Shown piece by piece: positions 6,925-60,908 of a stretch of 64,000 bases of DNA. Under the pieces are notes generated by a model. It did no database searches, was not told the DNA's origin, and was given only the letters and a program-made list of their open reading frames with translations. The stretch spans positions 14,629 through 78,628 of the forward strand of contig NYZP01000019.1 of the NCBI GenBank assembly GCA_002687175.1, given 5' to 3'. Source of the DNA: Parcubacteria group bacterium (GTDB lineage: Bacteria > Patescibacteriota > Patescibacteriia > Buchananbacterales > UBA6539). The position numbers were made by a program, and so were the translations under genes. The first letter of the stretch is position 1. Each line of letters opens with the position of its first letter.

Positions 6925-6935
6925 CTCTGTTTTCC

Positions 6936-7054
6936 TTCTGTCATTCTGAGACCTCCTCTATTGTCATCCTGAGCGAAGCGAAGGATCTCTGGTGTTAAGA
7001 CGTAAGTAATATCACCAGAGATTCTTCGGCCTTCGGCCTCAGAATGACAGGAGG
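6936..7054. repeat. MITE-like palindromic intergenic element A
   Basis: Terminal inverted repeat CTGTCATTCTGAG (6938-6950) / CTCAGAATGACAG (7038-7050). There is an internal hairpin GAAGGATCTCTGGTG...CACCAGAGATTCTTC and a GGCCTTCGGCC mini-hairpin. A second half-site TTGTCATCCTGAGCGAAGCGAAGG lies at 6961-6984. The element fills the whole convergent gap between two genes. Confidence 0.6.
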
Positions 7055-7064
7055 AAAAAATGTT

Positions 7065-8237: not shown

Positions 8238-8333
8238 AAATAGTTTATAAATAATATATACTTTAGCCAAAAAAGTCAATAAATTTTATATATCTACTAG
8301 TAATCAACTTAATTAATAATTAAACATAAAATT

Positions 8334-8594
8334 ATGTCCAAAGAACAAGGTCCATCTCCTGAAGAAATGGGTATAAAAAATGAAAATTCTGATGATGCAA
8401 AATTAAAAGAGTTTTGGGATCAGTATTCTACTGAAGAATTAAAAAGAGCAATTGAACCAGGTGATCCTATGGATGATATGTGGGGTATGACTCCAGATGC
8501 TGGTGAATTAGGTGAAGATTTCAATCCAACTAAAAGTAGTAAAGATGTTGTAAATAAAATTTTAGAAGAAAGAGGAGAAAATGTTGATAATTAA
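8334..8594 (+). CDS. small acidic hypothetical protein
   Basis: 86 aa ORF rich in D/E, placed 9 bp upstream of the methyltransferase gene. No recognisable motif. Confidence 0.4.
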   Translation: MSKEQGPSPEEMGIKNENSDDAKLKEFWDQYSTEELKRAIEPGDPMDDMWGMTPDAGELGEDFNPTKSSKDVVNKILEERGENVDN

Positions 8595-8602
8595 ATAAAA
8601 AA

Positions 8603-9451
8603 ATGGATCAAAAACAACAAGAACAATTAGAACAACAACGACAAACCTGGGATAAATTTTCCGCTGGTTGGAAAAAATGGGACGAGCTTTTAATGAGTAA
8701 AATGCGTCCGGTTAGTGAGGCCTTAATTGACTCTCTCACCATTAACGACAATGACTCTATCCTTGATGTTGCTTCCGGCACTGGCGAACCAGGTTTAACT
8801 TTAGCTAAAAAATTTCCTAATGCCCGAGTTACTGGCAGTGACTTGTCCGAACAAATGGTCAAGATTGCCAATGAACATGCCAAACAAAGAAATATTGCCA
8901 ATTACTTTAGTGTTCATGCTGATGCTTCTAACATGCCCTCTTTTGAAGATAACCAGTTTGACGGTTTGATTTGTCGCTTTGGTATCATGTTTATGCCCGA
9001 CCTGGACGGTTCGCTAAAAGAAATGGTTAGAGTGGTTAAACTAGGAGCTACCTTTTCCGTCGCTGTTTGGGCGGCACCACAATTTAATGATTTGTTGACC
9101 ACTATTGGTAAAATTGTTAGACATCAATTAAATATACCGGAACCTCCAGTAGACGTACCTGGTATATTTCGCTGTGCTCAAGAAGGTTTTACTTCAGGTA
9201 AGCTGGAGACGGCCGGACTTAATGAAGTTAAAGAATTTGAAATTGAAGGCGTTTCTGATTTTGATTCGCCAGAACATTACTGGGAAGTGATGTCCGACAT
9301 TGCCGGACCAATCATGGATGCCTTGAAAAAAGCCGATGAAGAAACTCAACAAGTAGTTAAAAAAGCAGTTTTGGAAGCAGCCGAAAAATTTGTGGTTGAC
9401 GGCAAGGTAAAATTAAACTGGAAAGCAATTATTGCCACCGGAATTAAATAA
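8603..9451 (+). CDS. class I SAM-dependent methyltransferase
   Basis: Motif I ILDVASGTGEPG and an acidic post-I block (SDLSEQMV), consistent with the Methyltransf_11/25 family. Its GC is moderately higher (~40%) than the neighbouring genes. Confidence 0.7.
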   Translation: MDQKQQEQLEQQRQTWDKFSAGWKKWDELLMSKMRPVSEALIDSLTINDNDSILDVASGTGEPGLTLAKKFPNARVTGSDLSEQMVKIANEHAKQRNIANYFSVHADASNMPSFEDNQFDGLICRFGIMFMPDLDGSLKEMVRVVKLGATFSVAVWAAPQFNDLLTTIGKIVRHQLNIPEPPVDVPGIFRCAQEGFTSGKLETAGLNEVKEFEIEGVSDFDSPEHYWEVMSDIAGPIMDALKKADEETQQVVKKAVLEAAEKFVVDGKVKLNWKAIIATGIK

Positions 9452-9454
9452 AAG

Positions 9455-9745
9455 AAAAAGGGTAAGTACTCTAAGAGCACTTACCCACATGGAATCCTTG
9501 AGGCCGTTACAGGCAGTGACGGGGTCGGATTAGCTAAGTTGCGGTATTTCACACCATTGCTGGTTACCCTCCCGAGGAGGACAATTGCGACTAGCTGTTT
9601 CCCAGAGAAAACAGTTCACAGTCTCCCGCATATTCTAGGAAGTAGCCATCCCCTCAATAGGACCAATGCTAGGGATTCGAACCCTAGTACGACCAACCAC
9701 TGTTTCCATGATGCTAAGATATTATTCTAAATTTTAAAAAAAGTC
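9455..9745 (-). ncRNA. candidate small structured RNA of unknown family
   Basis: A ~250 nt GC-rich (~50%) non-coding stretch in a 30% GC genome. On the minus strand a sigma70-like promoter (TTGACT, 17 bp spacer, TAATAT) sits at ~9743-9715. There is a canonical T-loop-like GGTTCGAATCC with a 5-6 bp stem at 9677-9695. Bases near the predicted 5' end (CAUGGA) can pair with UCCAUG just before the 3' hairpin. The 3' end is a hairpin (9460-9486) followed by a U-run on the minus strand. No full tRNA cloverleaf and no tmRNA/RNase P/SRP consensus could be aligned by eye. Confidence 0.3.
9460..9486 (-). terminator. rho-independent terminator hairpin (U-tract on minus strand; may also attenuate plus-strand read-through)
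   Basis: GGGTAAGTACTC-TAA-GAGCACTTACCC forms a 12-bp stem with one mismatch. The A-tract on the plus strand is a U-tract on the minus strand. Confidence 0.55.
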
Positions 9746-9787
9746 AAGGATAAAAAAAGGCCCAACTACGTTAATTCGTAGTCGGGC
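9746..9787 (-). terminator. rho-independent terminator of the GC-rich 3-gene cassette
   Basis: The plus strand reads AAAAAAAGGCCCAACTACG-TTAATT-CGTAGTCGGGC. On the minus strand this is a GC hairpin followed by UUUUUUU, immediately 3' of the stop at 9805. Confidence 0.65.
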
Positions 9788-9804
9788 TTAATGGTTGTAC
9801 GGAT

Positions 9805-10035
9805 TTACAACTCTATTCCTTGTTGCTCCGCCCATTCTCCTAGGGTCAGGTCTCCAGTGTGTTCTTCGTAGAAACCAAACTCTGGATATTCCGTTATACT
9901 GGGATTCTGCTTGGCCTTCTTAAGGGCTTCAACTTTTTTATCGCATTTAGCGACAACCAGTTCTTGCCACTCTTCTTCCGTGTCGATAACTTCACCGACC
10001 TGTCCGGAAAAACCAAATTTTGGCCACTTTGCCAT
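9805..10035 (-). CDS. hypothetical small acidic protein (foreign GC-rich cassette, gene 3 of 3)
   Basis: 76 aa ORF at ~50% GC. A strong RBS AAAGGAG lies 7 nt upstream of the ATG. It is followed by the terminator above. Confidence 0.55.
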   Translation of the reverse strand: MAKWPKFGFSGQVGEVIDTEEEWQELVVAKCDKKVEALKKAKQNPSITEYPEFGFYEEHTGDLTLGEWAEQQGIEL

Positions 10036-10053
10036 TGCACGCTCCTTTCTGGT

Positions 10054-10338
10054 CTAGTCAAAAACCTCGTAGACCTTCTTGGCTTCCAGAAGAATTCCAT
10101 GCCTGCGCGCTATCAAAAGTACGAACTCCTCGGTCAAGTTGCGACCGCCGGTGGTAGTGCGATTATGCTCCTCTACACCGTTGAAGAATTCATCTTGCTC
10201 GGGATCAAAGCATGGCTCTTCAGGATCTCCTTTGGTTAGATCCCATACCTGGACAAAAGCACCAACGGCCGGATGGTGATCGACACCAAACGCCATGGCA
10301 AACTGTGGGCCACTGACAACTTCGCGACTCATTGGCAA
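10054..10338 (-). CDS. hypothetical protein (foreign GC-rich cassette, gene 2 of 3)
   Basis: 94 aa ORF with RBS GAAGGAGA 8 nt upstream of the ATG. It is 12 bp downstream of gene 1 and 18 bp upstream of gene 3. Confidence 0.55.
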   Translation of the reverse strand: MPMSREVVSGPQFAMAFGVDHHPAVGAFVQVWDLTKGDPEEPCFDPEQDEFFNGVEEHNRTTTGGRNLTEEFVLLIARRHGILLEAKKVYEVFD

Positions 10339-10350
10339 TCTCCTTCTCGG

Positions 10351-10899
10351 TTAAACCAGAATTAAATTCCGGTTAAGTTTGATTCTGCTGCCTTGAGGAA
10401 TCTTTTTAAATTCCTTTTTATACGTTGCATACTGTATTGCGGTCTGGTACCAAGTTGACCAACGAAGTTCATAATCACGGCCAGCTGGGTCGTAAATTCT
10501 TTTCAACTCTTCCTTGAGTTTACGCCCGTACCAGCAATTCCTGGCAAAGGCTAAGCCGAGGAGCCAGTAGGCTGGTTCCAAGGTTAATGGCCCGGCAGGA
10601 ACTGCGGGTATGGAAACTTCACCAGTGACCCAGGTTCTGTTTATCGGCGCGCCGATAAAGTGCCTGGCTATAACCACGTTTCTCCCGGCAGCTTTTATTC
10701 CTTCGGCAAAGCTTAAGATGCAGCGATGCCGTGGCATCCATCCACCGAGTGCTTCGCCTAACTCTTTGGCTGGGTCAAAAAACCAAGCCTCACCGCGGGC
10801 GTTAGTCACCAGTACTGAACGCTCATGTTGAGCAAATCCACTTCTAACAATAATGATCTGGTTCTTCAGTCTCTGTTTCATTCCAATATCCTCCGTCAA
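10351..10899 (-). CDS. hypothetical protein, 182 aa (foreign GC-rich cassette, gene 1 of 3)
   Basis: RBS GGAGGA 8 nt upstream of the ATG. GC is ~50% and the codon usage is unlike the flanking genes. No motif I can assign confidently. Confidence 0.55.
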   Translation of the reverse strand: MTEDIGMKQRLKNQIIIVRSGFAQHERSVLVTNARGEAWFFDPAKELGEALGGWMPRHRCILSFAEGIKAAGRNVVIARHFIGAPINRTWVTGEVSIPAVPAGPLTLEPAYWLLGLAFARNCWYGRKLKEELKRIYDPAGRDYELRWSTWYQTAIQYATYKKEFKKIPQGSRIKLNRNLILV

Positions 10900-11112
10900 G
10901 CTCCCACTTGAAAGAAGGAGCTGGTGTTGTTGTGCAAACAGGTTGTAAGGTACTTCACTAAATACGTCAGAATTCGCAATACTAATTTACCTGGTTTAGA
11001 TTCTATATTGTTAGCTATATTTTTAGCTAGATAGAATACTAAAAGTTAATATTTTAGGTAAAAAAATAAGCGAATATCAAACAATTCACTATACACTATT
11101 TTACCAATTTTG

Positions 11113-11487
11113 TCAATGTTTTGTATCTCTTTTCTTCTGTATTAACTGCAAAACAATAAAGGCAATAATACCAAGGGCATCAATACCAACATCCATAATA
11201 CTACCAACACGTCCCAGAACAAAAGATTGATGCCATTCATCAAAGCCGGCATATCCAATGGCAAAAATAAAAGCGACGAATAATGATCGCTTGATGCCTA
11301 GACCAATACCTTTGAATGCATTAAATACTAAATAGGCTAAAACAAAAAATTCTGCACCATGGGCAATTTTTCGAAAAATTAAATCCCAGACTGGCTGTAG
11401 TTCTGATTTTAAATCTGGTTGAGCTGACAGAAAATAGATCAAGTGCATCCAAAAGTAGATGAGTACAAAGTTGATTATTTTTTTCAT
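11113..11487 (-). CDS. VanZ-like family membrane protein
   Basis: 124 aa with 4 predicted TM helices. It has the conserved HGAEFFVLAYL (H-x2-E-[FY]-x2-L) block and the GFDEWHQSF block typical of VanZ-like proteins. Confidence 0.65.
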   Translation of the reverse strand: MKKIINFVLIYFWMHLIYFLSAQPDLKSELQPVWDLIFRKIAHGAEFFVLAYLVFNAFKGIGLGIKRSLFVAFIFAIGYAGFDEWHQSFVLGRVGSIMDVGIDALGIIAFIVLQLIQKKRDTKH

Positions 11488-11532
11488 ACAATTAAAGCTT
11501 AGTAAAAATAGAAATATAGTTCAAAAAAATTT

Positions 11533-11663
11533 AAAATTCAAAATTTCAAATTTCAAATAAATTACAAATACCAATGATCAAAACTTAAAAATAATGATGA
11601 AAGTATATTTGTAATTTTGGATTTTGGATTTATTTAGAATTTGTAATTTTGGTTTTTGGATTT
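11533..11663. repeat. AT-rich imperfect palindrome built from CAAAAT/ATTTTG short repeats
   Basis: AAATTCAAAATTTCAAATTTCAAATAAATTACAAATA (11533-11571) is mirrored by TATTTGTAATTTTGGATTTTGGATTT...TTTGTAATTTTGGTTTTTGGATTT (11606-11663). It overlaps the last 11 codons of the GT4 gene ending at 11630. It may act as an intergenic terminator or promoter-spacing element. Confidence 0.4.
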
Positions 11664-12817
11664 AACCCATTATAAATCTCATCAAGCTGCTCCCCAATAA
11701 TCTTCCAGTCATATTTGGCCTTAACTTTACGTCGGCCAGCTTTGCCAAATTGTAATGCTTCGTCTGTGTCAGTCAATAAATAATTAATCTTATCGGCTAA
11801 TCCTTCAACATCTTTTGGTTTAACTAATAAACCATTAACATCTTGAGTGACCACACTACGAACACCAACCAAATCAGAAGCAATCACTGGTTTACCACAA
11901 GCCATTCCTTCAACCAAGGCTAAACCAAAAGCTTCGGACTTATCTATAGACGGTAATACTACAACGTTGGCTAAATTGTAATACTTTGGTAAATCTTCAT
12001 TGGAGACGTATCCAGTAAACACGGTCTTAAATTCCATTTTAAATTGAGAGGCTAAATTAAAATATTCTTCTTTTAATTCTCCAGAACCGACGATTACCAG
12101 CTTCCAACTATAAGTCGTGTCACGTAAACGGCTCATTGCTTCAATTAAACCTTCTATGCCTTTAAAGTAATGAGCTTTATCTAAACCACCAACAAATAAC
12201 ACAACTTTATCTTCTGGTTTAATTTCATGTTTGGACATTAAAGTCTGACTTTTGTCTTGTGGCTGAAAATTACTTGTATCAACACCATTAGGTACTTCAA
12301 TAAACTTGTTTGGCTCTTTAGCCGCCAACTTGGCTAAGTCAGAATTTTTACCATAATCCATGGAGGTAAAAATAACTTTATCAACCATCTTAACAATCCT
12401 AGGTAATAACAAGATTTTATGAATTTTAAAAATTAATTTGAATAAACCTTCACCAACCACGTCCATGTGATAGTGCAAGACAATTTTTGCTCCCCGCTTT
12501 TTAAACTTGCGTTTATAAAACCAGATAGTTTCCGCTCCACCAAAAAAGGGATAGTGAAGATGAATAATATTAAAGTCCTTAAGCATCCAATGTAAGGCCG
12601 GGACAAAGGCGGCATTACCATACTTAAGAAGCGGCTTAATCCGCTTGATTTTTAGCTCTGTAAGCTCCTCTTTAAAGTCTTTGGCCTTATTATACTGTGG
12701 GGTGAAAATAGTGACGTCATGGCCTAATTTTGCCAGTTCCAGAGCATTTGAGGCAGCGACATTACCAATACCACCAGCATATGGCGGAAGAGTTGGCGTG
12801 ATAATAGCAATCTTCAT
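11630..12817 (-). CDS. GT4 family glycosyltransferase
   Basis: MKIAIITPTLPPYAGGIGNVA at the N-terminus. The EX7E region is SEAFGLALVEGMACGKPVIASDLVGVRSVV. Confidence 0.8.
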   Translation of the reverse strand: MKIAIITPTLPPYAGGIGNVAASNALELAKLGHDVTIFTPQYNKAKDFKEELTELKIKRIKPLLKYGNAAFVPALHWMLKDFNIIHLHYPFFGGAETIWFYKRKFKKRGAKIVLHYHMDVVGEGLFKLIFKIHKILLLPRIVKMVDKVIFTSMDYGKNSDLAKLAAKEPNKFIEVPNGVDTSNFQPQDKSQTLMSKHEIKPEDKVVLFVGGLDKAHYFKGIEGLIEAMSRLRDTTYSWKLVIVGSGELKEEYFNLASQFKMEFKTVFTGYVSNEDLPKYYNLANVVVLPSIDKSEAFGLALVEGMACGKPVIASDLVGVRSVVTQDVNGLLVKPKDVEGLADKINYLLTDTDEALQFGKAGRRKVKAKYDWKIIGEQLDEIYNGLNPKTKITNSK

Positions 12818-12976: not shown

Positions 12977-13249
12977 ATGGCAATTACTGCTGATGACACC
13001 CGTGTTGGGAATGGCAAAGTGACTGATGAAGAGTCAACCGTAGTCTGCCCTTGCTGCGCGGGAATCATGACGGAAGACCCTGACACCCCGAACGGTATGG
13101 GTGTCAAGGGCTACTATGATTGTCCGGTGTGTGGCTTTAGTCACGAGAGTTACCTGCATACGCAGGGAGAAGACGCCGAGATAATACGCCGGGGAGTGGT
13201 CTATATGGACAAACTCGCGGCGGAAGCAGAAAAGGGACGAGGATCTTAG
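12977..13249 (+). CDS. small zinc-ribbon protein (CPCC...CPVC), GC-rich, probably horizontally acquired
   Basis: 90 aa at ~55% GC. Four Cys are arranged CxCC-x21-CPVC. An AAGGAG RBS lies 8 nt upstream of the ATG. It has its own terminator downstream. Confidence 0.55.
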   Translation: MAITADDTRVGNGKVTDEESTVVCPCCAGIMTEDPDTPNGMGVKGYYDCPVCGFSHESYLHTQGEDAEIIRRGVVYMDKLAAEAEKGRGS

Positions 13250-13301
13250 CGAATGCTCGATCTTATCGAGAACTCCGAAGAAAGACCCTAAGCTGCCTCT
13301 C

Positions 13302-13340
13302 CCCCCCCCGGACCCCACCTGATCACGAAAAGTGTGACGG
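13302..13340 (+). terminator. rho-independent terminator
   Basis: GACCCCACC-TGATCACGAAAAGTGTGAC-GGTGGGGTTC followed by TTTTTTT. A poly-C run precedes it. Confidence 0.6.
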
Positions 13341-13380
13341 TGGGGTTCTTTTTTTACCTAAAATTATTAAATTAAAATCA

Positions 13381-13410
13381 TTGGATGAATTTAAAACAAT
13401 CTGCTATAAT
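13381..13410 (+). promoter_or_regulatory. sigma70-type promoter with extended -10 (TGcTATAAT) for the peroxiredoxin gene
   Basis: TGCTATAAT at 13402-13410. A weak -35 TTGGAT lies ~18 bp upstream. Confidence 0.5.
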
Positions 13411-15162: not shown

Positions 15163-15184
15163 AATATTGTTCATAACATTACCA

Positions 15185-15283
15185 TTTGTCATTGCGAACC
15201 CCGCGTATGCGGGGTGAAGCAATCTCTGTCTATAGAGATTGCCACGTCGTCCCGCTAAAGCGGGACTCCTCGCAATGACAAAA
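15185..15283. repeat. MITE-like palindromic intergenic element B (related to element A)
   Basis: Terminal inverted repeat TTTGTCATTGCGAA (15185-15198) / CTCGCAATGACAAA (15268-15283). Three internal perfect hairpins: CCCCGC-GTAT-GCGGGG, GCAATCTCT-GTCTAT-AGAGATTGC and GTCCCGC-TAAA-GCGGGAC. Confidence 0.6.
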
Positions 15284-15293
15284 AGAAAAGAAT

Positions 15294-59825: not shown

Positions 59826-60908
59826 TTGTTGGCATTACGTCAATTTGCACCTATAAAACTCAGAGGAGAGATACTGATGGAAATTACATTGTTTGATTTC
59901 GTGCTTCATGTCATGGAAGAGATTGACAAGCAACGCATTCGGCTCAAAGATCAGATCTCCCAAGCGGTTGAGTCAACTGATCGAGGTAAACAACAAGCTC
60001 GGCTGGAACAATGGATTTATGATTTTCTCAAACAAGAAGTCATGGAATCACTCAAGTCGATGAATGCGGGGGTTCGGCTCAATGCTGAAGGTTATGAACC
60101 AGTAGAAAACGGCTTACCGGTAGAACAAGTGATCAATATTGATCCTTGGGATGGCACGGCCAATGGTTGTCGCTTCATAGATGGCGGTCAGCAAATTGGC
60201 TCCTCCTTTGCGACGGTGATCTCGGTAATGCCGGAAATGGAAAATACGACGTTTGGTGATGTTTAAATCGGCGCTGGACTTGACCTTCGTACCGGACAGT
60301 ATTGGATTGCTGAAGTAGGACGAGGGGCTTTTAGTGGAATTGAGGCAGCTCAAAGATCAACAATTCAAAGATCAGAAATACAACAGCTGGCTCCAAATCC
60401 TCAGTACCACCGCCACAGTCCATTACTGGCCTCTGAGTTCTGTCGTCAGATCAATTGGCTCACTCGTTTGCTGATCAACCAACCAGTTGAATGGACCGAC
60501 TGCGCTAGCAGTTTCATCAACATGCTACGGGTTGCTCTTGGTGAAACTGACTGTTTCTTCAATAATGTTTTCCCATCAATCTCCAAGGAGGGACAGCGTG
60601 GACACGAACTTGGTGCCATGATGCCGTTCATTAAAGAACTTGGGGCTTGTGCCATTGATACCAGAACTGGTAAAAATCTAATGACAACACCTTTCACCTT
60701 TGACGGTATGACACCGGTGATGATCGGCGTTGACGAAGATACGGTCAAGTACTACAAAGAAATGATGGAGGAAAATCTTGAACAAGAAATTCAAATTTAT
60801 CCTGGGCTGGCTATAAAGCTTCGAGATCTGATTCCGGCCATTCATAACGGAATTGGCACTCAGCGCTGGTCTCATCGAGATCTACCACGAGCTAAAGTCG
60901 AAGTTTAA
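59826..60908 (+). pseudogene. GC-rich inositol-monophosphatase-like gene split by one in-frame TAA (two ORFs in the same frame)
   Basis: ORFs 59826-60266 and 60468-60908 are in the same frame, with no other stop between them. The first contains the IMPase-family DPxDGT-like block INIDPWDGTANGCRF. A strong RBS (GAGGAGAG) precedes the internal ATG at 59877. Both annotated ORF starts are TTG. GC is ~45% against ~30% background. A terminator follows at 60920-60950. Confidence 0.5.

Follow-up and report, generated by a model that had tools for sequence, protein, structure and literature searches.

A candidate orphan small RNA with a canonical T-arm beside a GC-rich islet in a Parcubacteria genome

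What lies in the 353-nt gap at positions 9452–9804 of the stretch of contig NYZP01000019.1 analyzed here (64,000 nucleotides, called the window), between a methyltransferase gene on the + strand (8603–9451) and a convergent three-gene cassette on the minus strand (10881–9805)? The window comes from a metagenome-assembled genome (MAG) of a marine member of the Parcubacteria, within the Candidate Phyla Radiation (CPR). A sequence-only reading had placed in this gap a small structured RNA with a promoter, a T-loop, and a terminator of its own. The discrete noncoding unit with its T-arm survives closer analysis, while the claim that the RNA is structured is weaker than it looked, because the folding energy of its body is not significant. 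The interpretation that we put forward, tentatively and with somewhat less than even confidence, is that the segment is an orphan, independently transcribed small RNA, real and discrete, that lies beside a horizontally acquired islet. The main rival to this interpretation is a nonfunctional relic derived from a tRNA. The analysis shows the anatomy of the segment, its lack of a place in any known family, and its orphan status; its transcription, a role as a tRNA mimic, and any fold other than that of the T-arm, the terminator, and P1 are inferred.

Boundaries of the candidate RNA

The body of the candidate RNA (9487–9712, minus strand) is 226 nt long and has no Pfam match in any frame. Its GC content is 50%, in a window that averages 34% overall, and in this respect the segment is just as the sequence-only reading had described it. 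The step in composition is sharp at the predicted ends. The 47-nt spacer that precedes the body (9713–9759), and that carries a promoter-like site, has a GC content of 19%, and GC content drops again at the terminator that follows the body. This intrinsic terminator (9450–9486, minus strand) is of high quality: a 12-bp stem (9486–9460), predicted with a pair probability of 1.00, is followed by the tract TTTTTCTTTT (9459–9450), in full agreement with the 12-bp hairpin and U-tract first read from the letters. It lies about 300 nt downstream of the cassette's own terminator on the same strand (9753–9787), in which an 11-bp stem (9787–9760) is followed by T7, and the promoter-like site falls between the two. 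Because the T-tract of the second terminator is found on the minus strand only, this terminator serves a minus-strand RNA and not the convergent methyltransferase gene.

The promoter-like site is of the sigma-70 type (9719–9747, minus strand), with a −35 element, TTGACT, at 9747–9742, a 17-nt spacer, and a −10 element, TAATAT, at 9724–9719. It scores 9 matches out of 12. The motif had been recognized by the sequence-only reading, although its position at 9743–9715 was 4 nt in error. The transcript is predicted to start near A9712. Such matches are no commoner in the surrounding 3.4-kb region than in shuffled sequence (9 found against 7.4 expected), and the promoter is therefore not evidence on its own. 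Together with the Rho-independent terminator, however, a site that is at chance level by itself delimits a noncoding unit of the kind expected for a small-RNA gene. The argument for a separate RNA is drawn from the combination: two terminators on the same strand that flank a promoter-like site, the GC step, and a closing stem that brackets the predicted transcript. Transcription of the minus strand would then be started near 9712 by a sigma-70-type promoter and would stop at the hairpin and T-tract at 9486–9450.

It might be supposed instead that the segment is part of its neighbors' transcripts, either as a long 3′ region of the cassette that is reached by read-through, or as an overlap of convergent transcripts, in which antisense collision would limit read-through out of the methyltransferase gene. 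The convergent genes are closely spaced, and the methyltransferase stop codon (TAA, 9449–9451) abuts the RNA terminator. The methyltransferase gene also lacks a + strand terminator of its own, since the hairpin at 9460–9486 has no T-tract on that strand. Against such an origin stands the strong terminator of the cassette at 9787–9760, which lies upstream of the candidate RNA, so that cassette transcription should stop before reaching it. The T-arm and the closing stem would also be left unexplained. We regard this explanation as distinctly unlikely.

That the segment is a small protein gene is less credible still, and we consider it highly improbable. Open frames do exist. One of 24 codons begins at the AUG at 9709 and would be nearly leaderless. 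On the + strand no further stop codon occurs in the methyltransferase frame for 92 codons beyond its TAA (9452–9727), a stretch that spans the whole of the candidate RNA and is somewhat unexpected; inside it lies a 63-residue open reading frame (ORF) with a TTG start (9539–9730). No Shine-Dalgarno site precedes the start of any of these frames, whereas the genes of the cassette all have sites of the GGAG type. Gene callers predicted nothing at the segment in other assemblies, and the homologues of the methyltransferase share its end point, at a length of about 282 aa. Given this common length and the lack of a Pfam match, the 92-codon open frame is probably a chance feature of GC-rich sequence.

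T-arm, closing stem, and predicted fold

The body contains a hairpin, CUAGGG-UUCGAAU-CCCUAG (CTAGGGTTCGAATCCCTAG; 9669–9687, minus strand; RNA positions 26–44), that is predicted with a probability of 0.99 and has the makeup of a canonical tRNA T-arm. In UAGGG-UUCGAAU-CCCUA (9686–9670, minus strand) a 5-bp stem carries a 7-nt loop closed by G53–C61, and G53, U54, U55, C56, R57, A58, and C61 are all as in tRNA. The T-loop consensus, GGTTCGAATCC, lies at 9683–9673 within this hairpin. The sequence-only reading had noticed both the loop and its stem but had placed them at 9677–9695, about 8 nt from the hairpin at 9687–9669. The loop is canonical on the minus strand only, which is the strand of the promoter and terminator. 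The 13-nt core of the T-arm, GGGTTCGAATCCC, occurs once in the 64 kb; 100 shuffles of the window did not produce it at all.

The two ends of the body are complementary. Pairing of CAUGGA at the 5′ end with UCCAUG near the 3′ end, proposed earlier from the letters, is borne out and extends to CAUGGAA/UUCCAUG, which forms helix P1 (9710–9704/9494–9488, minus strand; RNA 3–9/219–225) with a probability of 0.95. The closing stem is predicted to be continued by P2 (9702–9697/9519–9514; RNA 11–16/194–199) and P3 (9694–9690/9527–9523; RNA 19–23/186–190), for which the probabilities are 0.65 and 0.74. The stem opens 2 nt past the predicted start of the transcript and closes 1 nt ahead of the terminator hairpin. 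The duplex formed by P1–P3 has an energy of −19.5 kcal/mol, a value that is reached by 3% of shuffles and by 2% of equally spaced windows of cassette coding sequence. The T-arm core, the terminator, the closing stem (p ~0.03), and the GC step are all beyond chance. This holds neither for the promoter match nor for the energy with which the body folds without the terminator (z = −1.0).

Between the T-arm and the 3′ strand of the closing stem the fold is a single-sequence prediction. A long interrupted hairpin arm (9561–9665, minus strand; RNA 48–152) has helix probabilities of 0.56–0.89, and parts of it could instead form the local hairpins CUGUUUUC/GGAAACAG and CCUCC/GGAGG. A small hairpin, GGUG-UGAAA-UACC (9543–9555, minus strand; RNA 158–170; probability 0.51), is preceded by AAUGGU and occupies the position of a D-arm. 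The stretch that follows, GCAACUUAGCUAAUC (9528–9542, minus strand; RNA 171–185), is predicted to be single stranded and holds the palindrome UUAGCUAA (9537–9530).

If this fold is adopted, the first 23 nt of the RNA would be paired to the 40 nt that lead up to the terminator, and the body would close on itself through P1–P3. The junction of the closing stem would bear, in order, the canonical T-arm, the interrupted hairpin of about 100 nt, and the small hairpin. This predicted order of helices would correspond to circular permutation of a tRNA at its anticodon loop, as in Y RNAs of the YrlA type. It is well established that TruB and TrmA recognize isolated T-arm stem–loops. The RNA might accordingly be imagined to work through protein binding, as a partial tRNA mimic whose T-arm is read by enzymes such as these, although we judge a function in tRNA mimicry to be unlikely. 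Antisense regulation is not favored: no target stands out in the window, where none of the start sites gave a better match than shuffled controls.

Relatives and acquired surroundings

The candidate RNA is an orphan. No homologue was found in any of the genome, metagenome, viral, phage, and plasmid sets that were searched. Phage and plasmid records yielded no similar DNA by blastn. A gapped pattern that ran from P3 through the T-loop to the base of the long arm gave 53 matches in 185,579 species genomes, a collection that does not include the source genome, and none was similar beyond the pattern. When a pattern of junction nucleotides and T-loop was run over 241 million metagenome records, four contigs were returned with similarity in the T-arm only, three of them in tRNA arrays; five pattern scans of IMG/VR produced one chance match, inside a gene. 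Because such scans reach only close relatives, the lack of a homologue does not show that none exists. Over the region, all other assemblies of the organism are 100% identical.

The three array contigs merit a separate remark. The segments that bear the T-arm (L074, 7605–7635, minus strand; L075, 1533–1563, + strand; L076, 2273–2303, minus strand) are situated in dense tRNA arrays, and ARAGORN does not call them as tRNAs. On L074 there are 17 tRNAs in 8.8 kb, one with a UUA “stop” anticodon. The segments could represent elements that resemble tRNA, or else tRNAs of an unusual kind within phage-like arrays.

The cassette upstream of the candidate RNA is a GC-rich islet (46–51% GC; 9805–10881, minus strand) of three genes, A (10881–10351, 176 aa), B (10332–10054, 92 aa), and C (10035–9805, 76 aa). 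A protein of the cassette appears at NCBI as hypothetical protein CMI53_03175 (MAG, Parcubacteria group bacterium). Protein A has no match in Pfam, PHROG, or PADLOC. A full HMMER search revealed about 30 remote homologues of roughly 140–200 aa, among which R13, P37, R51, G61, G66, G109, and W117 are invariant. Protein A defines an uncharacterized family. Its AlphaFold model is confident (pLDDT 82.8), and Foldseek found no match to it in the PDB or BFVD. The genes for protein A have strong TTGACA-17-TAnnAT promoters and leaders of about 200–280 nt (10882–11116, minus strand, in the window; 3700–3992 in L066; 530–782 in L067). Palindromes like TTAGCTAA are found in these leaders, together with a conserved GCUCC...GGAGC hairpin that directly precedes the Shine-Dalgarno site, and the leader may be regulatory.

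On its other side the candidate RNA is bordered by a gene that is itself probably of horizontal origin. The methyltransferase gene has a GC content of 40% in a genome of 34%, and its homologues, at most 61% identical, come from unrelated bacteria (Ignavibacteria, for example), in some cases from contigs as long as about 5 Mb. In Pfam scans the genes of the window are mostly concerned with cell-surface glycans, and include glycosyltransferases, a Wzy-type ligase, and sugar epimerases. The RNA, which adjoins an acquired islet in this glycan-biosynthesis region, probably also came by horizontal transfer; it may have arrived with the islet or independently. Five B12-binding radical SAM paralogues of 457–521 aa are scattered through the glycan-biosynthesis cluster, over 28562–51814.

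The main rival takes the segment to be decaying foreign DNA, left from the islet or from the methyltransferase, in which a T-arm remains from a tRNA or transfer-messenger RNA (tmRNA) and the promoter-like site and closing stem are coincidental. It would be in keeping with a region that is a mosaic of horizontally acquired pieces, as the divergence of the methyltransferase homologues and the composition of the islet indicate, and also with the nonsignificant folding energy of the body, a promoter at chance level, and the lack of any homologue. A hint of tRNA-associated insertion is provided by one lineage, in which the gene for protein A lies 220–330 nt downstream of tRNA-Arg(CCG). The T-arm, however, is intact at every invariant position, and nothing past it resembles tRNA or tmRNA. 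Within this islet, spacer DNA has by now drifted down to 19% GC, whereas the segment keeps 50% and sharp edges, and a dedicated strong terminator stands behind it. Nor is there a direct repeat at the far end of the islet, an integrase, or a full tRNA. On balance a relic seems to us somewhat unlikely.

The related proposal of the sequence-only reading, that a decayed tRNA fragment marks an integration site, is not supported. No direct repeat was found in 8300–11700, no tRNA in the window, and no integrase domain among the neighbors, and no att-like repeats were found around the protein A homologues that are linked to tRNA-Arg. The locus does resemble the tRNA fragments at island integration sites in that an isolated T-arm adjoins an acquired cassette of atypical GC content, and in that the protein A family occurs beside tRNA-Arg in another lineage. 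It differs from them in having no direct repeat, integrase, or intact tRNA partner, in the flank of its T-arm, which is unlike the 3′ half of a tRNA, and in possessing a promoter-like site and terminator of its own.

Several observations weigh against an independently transcribed, folded RNA, beginning with the chance-level promoter described above. The whole transcript folds with z = −2.98, but it owes this value to the terminator hairpin. For the 226-nt body by itself z is −1.03, and 35 of 200 shuffled sequences reach its stability. The opposite strand folds with z = −1.35, and windows of cassette coding sequence fold as well as the body of the RNA. High GC content alone is no proof of an RNA, since foreign GC-rich DNA is also present at 12977–13249. 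The failure to find a homologue in any set must be counted here as well. No RNA like the candidate is present beside homologues of the methyltransferase, in the two nearest contexts. In four independent contexts of protein A (loci L057–L068) the downstream genes are unrelated to B and C and a similar RNA is again absent, so that the candidate RNA is not a conserved partner of the protein A family. Three points of the comparison with Y RNAs given below, concerning the D-position hairpin, the unpaired nucleotides that follow it, and the TROVE domain, tell in the same direction.

Other parts of the window also depart from its average composition. The foreign-looking gene at 12977–13249 (+ strand, 53.5% GC) encodes 90 aa with two CxxC pairs, which are zinc-ribbon-like, and has no Pfam match; it has a good Shine-Dalgarno site and a terminator of its own at about 13310–13350. 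The region 59826–60908 (+ strand, 44–49% GC) contains two successive ORFs of 146 aa in different frames, which may represent either a single foreign gene broken by a frameshift or a pair of small ones. Intergenic GC content within the window is mostly 10–31%, and three intergenic regions other than the candidate RNA are near 45%. Two of them, 6925–7064 and 15163–15293, hold nested GC-rich (45%) palindromes, gtcattctgag...ctcagaatgac (inner gtcatcctgagcgaagcgaaggatctc) and gtcattgcgaa...tcgcaatgac, that look, from their letters, like repetitive extragenic palindromic (REP) sequences or miniature inverted-repeat transposable elements (MITEs). The third, 13250–13384, is a 3′ region with a terminator hairpin at its end.

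To our knowledge, the RNA biology of CPR bacteria, most of which are unculturable, is almost unexplored. If real, the candidate would be among the very few regulatory or scaffold RNA candidates described in this radiation. A tRNA mimic, if that is what it proves to be, would lie outside the Ro/Y-RNA and tmRNA systems and would bear on the use or decoying of T-arm-reading enzymes and of factors that target tRNA. As a candidate from a single genome, it may be of practical value as a seed for covariance-model searches of Patescibacteria genomes and marine metatranscriptomes.

Comparison with known RNAs

The candidate RNA is absent from every known family. ARAGORN, run on the whole window with permuted tmRNAs included, reported 0 tRNAs and 0 tmRNAs, and so did not uphold the idea of a tRNA- or tmRNA-like element. 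At the gathering score, Rfam 15 has no match in the window to tmRNA, RNase P, signal recognition particle (SRP) RNA, 6S RNA, or any other family, although membership in one of these four had been raised by the sequence-only reading; the lack of an Rfam match is half of what that reading had itself named beforehand as telling against the RNA. A permissive search of 9300–9900 (E up to 10) returned noise only, with no tRNA match. The small SRP and other matches obtained in this way fall on the two terminator hairpins; for RNase P, SRP, and 6S RNA the only match is one of 19 bits to the Bacteroidales small SRP, on the terminator hairpin. By inspection the RNA has none of the conserved blocks of RNase P or SRP RNA. 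Identification as a tRNA was rejected because the complete cloverleaf is lacking, in line with the ARAGORN and Rfam results.

Comparison with tmRNA, including its two-piece permuted form, is prompted by the T-arm with its UUCGAAU loop, by a roughly similar size class, and by a GG-containing stretch near the T-arm, CAGUGGUUGG, that is like the D-loop analogue of tmRNA. In the candidate, however, the T-arm is on the 5′ side, without the 3′ strand of an acceptor stem and CCA after it. It is followed by GCAUUGGUCCU, for which the RNA offers no complementary YYRRUGY strand, and hence neither an acceptor-stem partner nor G3:U70. There is no plausible tag frame: none of the short frames is rich in Ala or ends in hydrophobic residues, and the best of them terminates in ...EIPQLS before its stop codon. 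The score with the Rfam tmRNA model is 7.3 bits (gathering score, 47), and the match covers the T-loop alone (model positions 346–363). With all scores below the thresholds of clan CL00001 and a negative result from ARAGORN, tmRNA was rejected.

The closest parallel in topology is YrlA, a circularly permuted, tRNA-like bacterial Y RNA that is bound by Ro60/Rsr (Chen et al. 2014, PMC4201824; Wang et al. 2018, bioRxiv 10.1101/312249). In YrlA the order of elements is terminal stem, (V), T stem–loop, closed acceptor-like stem–loop, D stem–loop, terminal stem (PMC4201824; bioRxiv 10.1101/312249). The D stem–loop is nearly invariant, of the type GCUC-AAUGGUA-GAGC, with G18 and G19 and a single nucleotide between it and the stem (bioRxiv 10.1101/312249), and Rsr is contacted through a GNCGAAN0-1G motif near the 5′ end (PMC4201824). 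The gene is expected within about 4 kb of a Ro60/Rsr (TROVE) gene, on the same strand.

The candidate is likewise a free-standing small RNA whose 5′ and 3′ ends pair in a stem and whose T-arm is canonical, and its helix order (P1–P3, T hairpin, long arm, small hairpin) is the same in the single-sequence prediction. It differs from YrlA in that the hairpin at the D position has a 5-nt loop without GG and a probability of only 0.51, and in that AAUGGU lies at the base of this hairpin. Fifteen unpaired nucleotides separate the D-position hairpin from the closing stem, where tRNA and YrlA have a single nucleotide. The GNCGAAN0-1G motif is missing from the 5′ region (...UUGGUCGUACUAGGG), where GUCGUAC comes nearest to it. 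The arm in the “acceptor” position measures about 100 nt, and no sequence similarity to YrlA was detected. No TROVE domain is present in the 30 window ORFs scanned with Pfam, a set that includes each ORF within 4 kb and, across the window, all ORFs similar in size to Ro60. When the RNA was trimmed and re-permuted to the order of a tRNA, ARAGORN did call a tRNA, but it also called one in about 50% of controls with a shuffled D region, and the call is therefore uninformative. As a positive control, the published Salmonella YrlA module was compared by blastn with phages, plasmids, and E. coli genomes, and nothing matched.

These comparisons also bear on whether the segment could be a very divergent member of a known family, for instance a Y RNA of the YrlA type or a tmRNA in two-piece or permuted form, that current models miss. 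The seed alignments of Rfam cover CPR genomes poorly. A canonical T-arm, a YrlA-like order of helices, and the occurrence of AAUGGU, the sequence of the YrlA D-loop, directly after the long arm would all suit such a view. It conflicts with the negative result of ARAGORN for permuted tmRNA and with an Rfam search that, at E up to 10, adds nothing beyond the T-loop. It conflicts also with the lack of an acceptor stem adjoining the T-arm, of G3:U70, and of a credible tag frame, and with the absence of the Rsr motif and of a TROVE gene both within 4 kb and among the 30 ORFs scanned in the 64-kb window. We hold it to be very improbable.

The resemblance to YrlA ends at the topology and the T-arm. 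A more speculative version of the small-RNA interpretation, which we think improbable, can also be put forward. The RNA would be a Ro-independent, circularly permuted tRNA mimic carried on a mobile CPR islet, YrlA-like but with a greatly enlarged “acceptor” arm, and the junction palindrome UUAGCUAA could mediate its dimerization. Its neighbor on the islet would be the protein A family, for whose predicted fold the PDB and BFVD have no counterpart. If that were so, the most reduced bacteria would have a tRNA-like effector RNA of a new class, one that shares with YrlA the paired ends, the T-arm, and the permuted order of helices.

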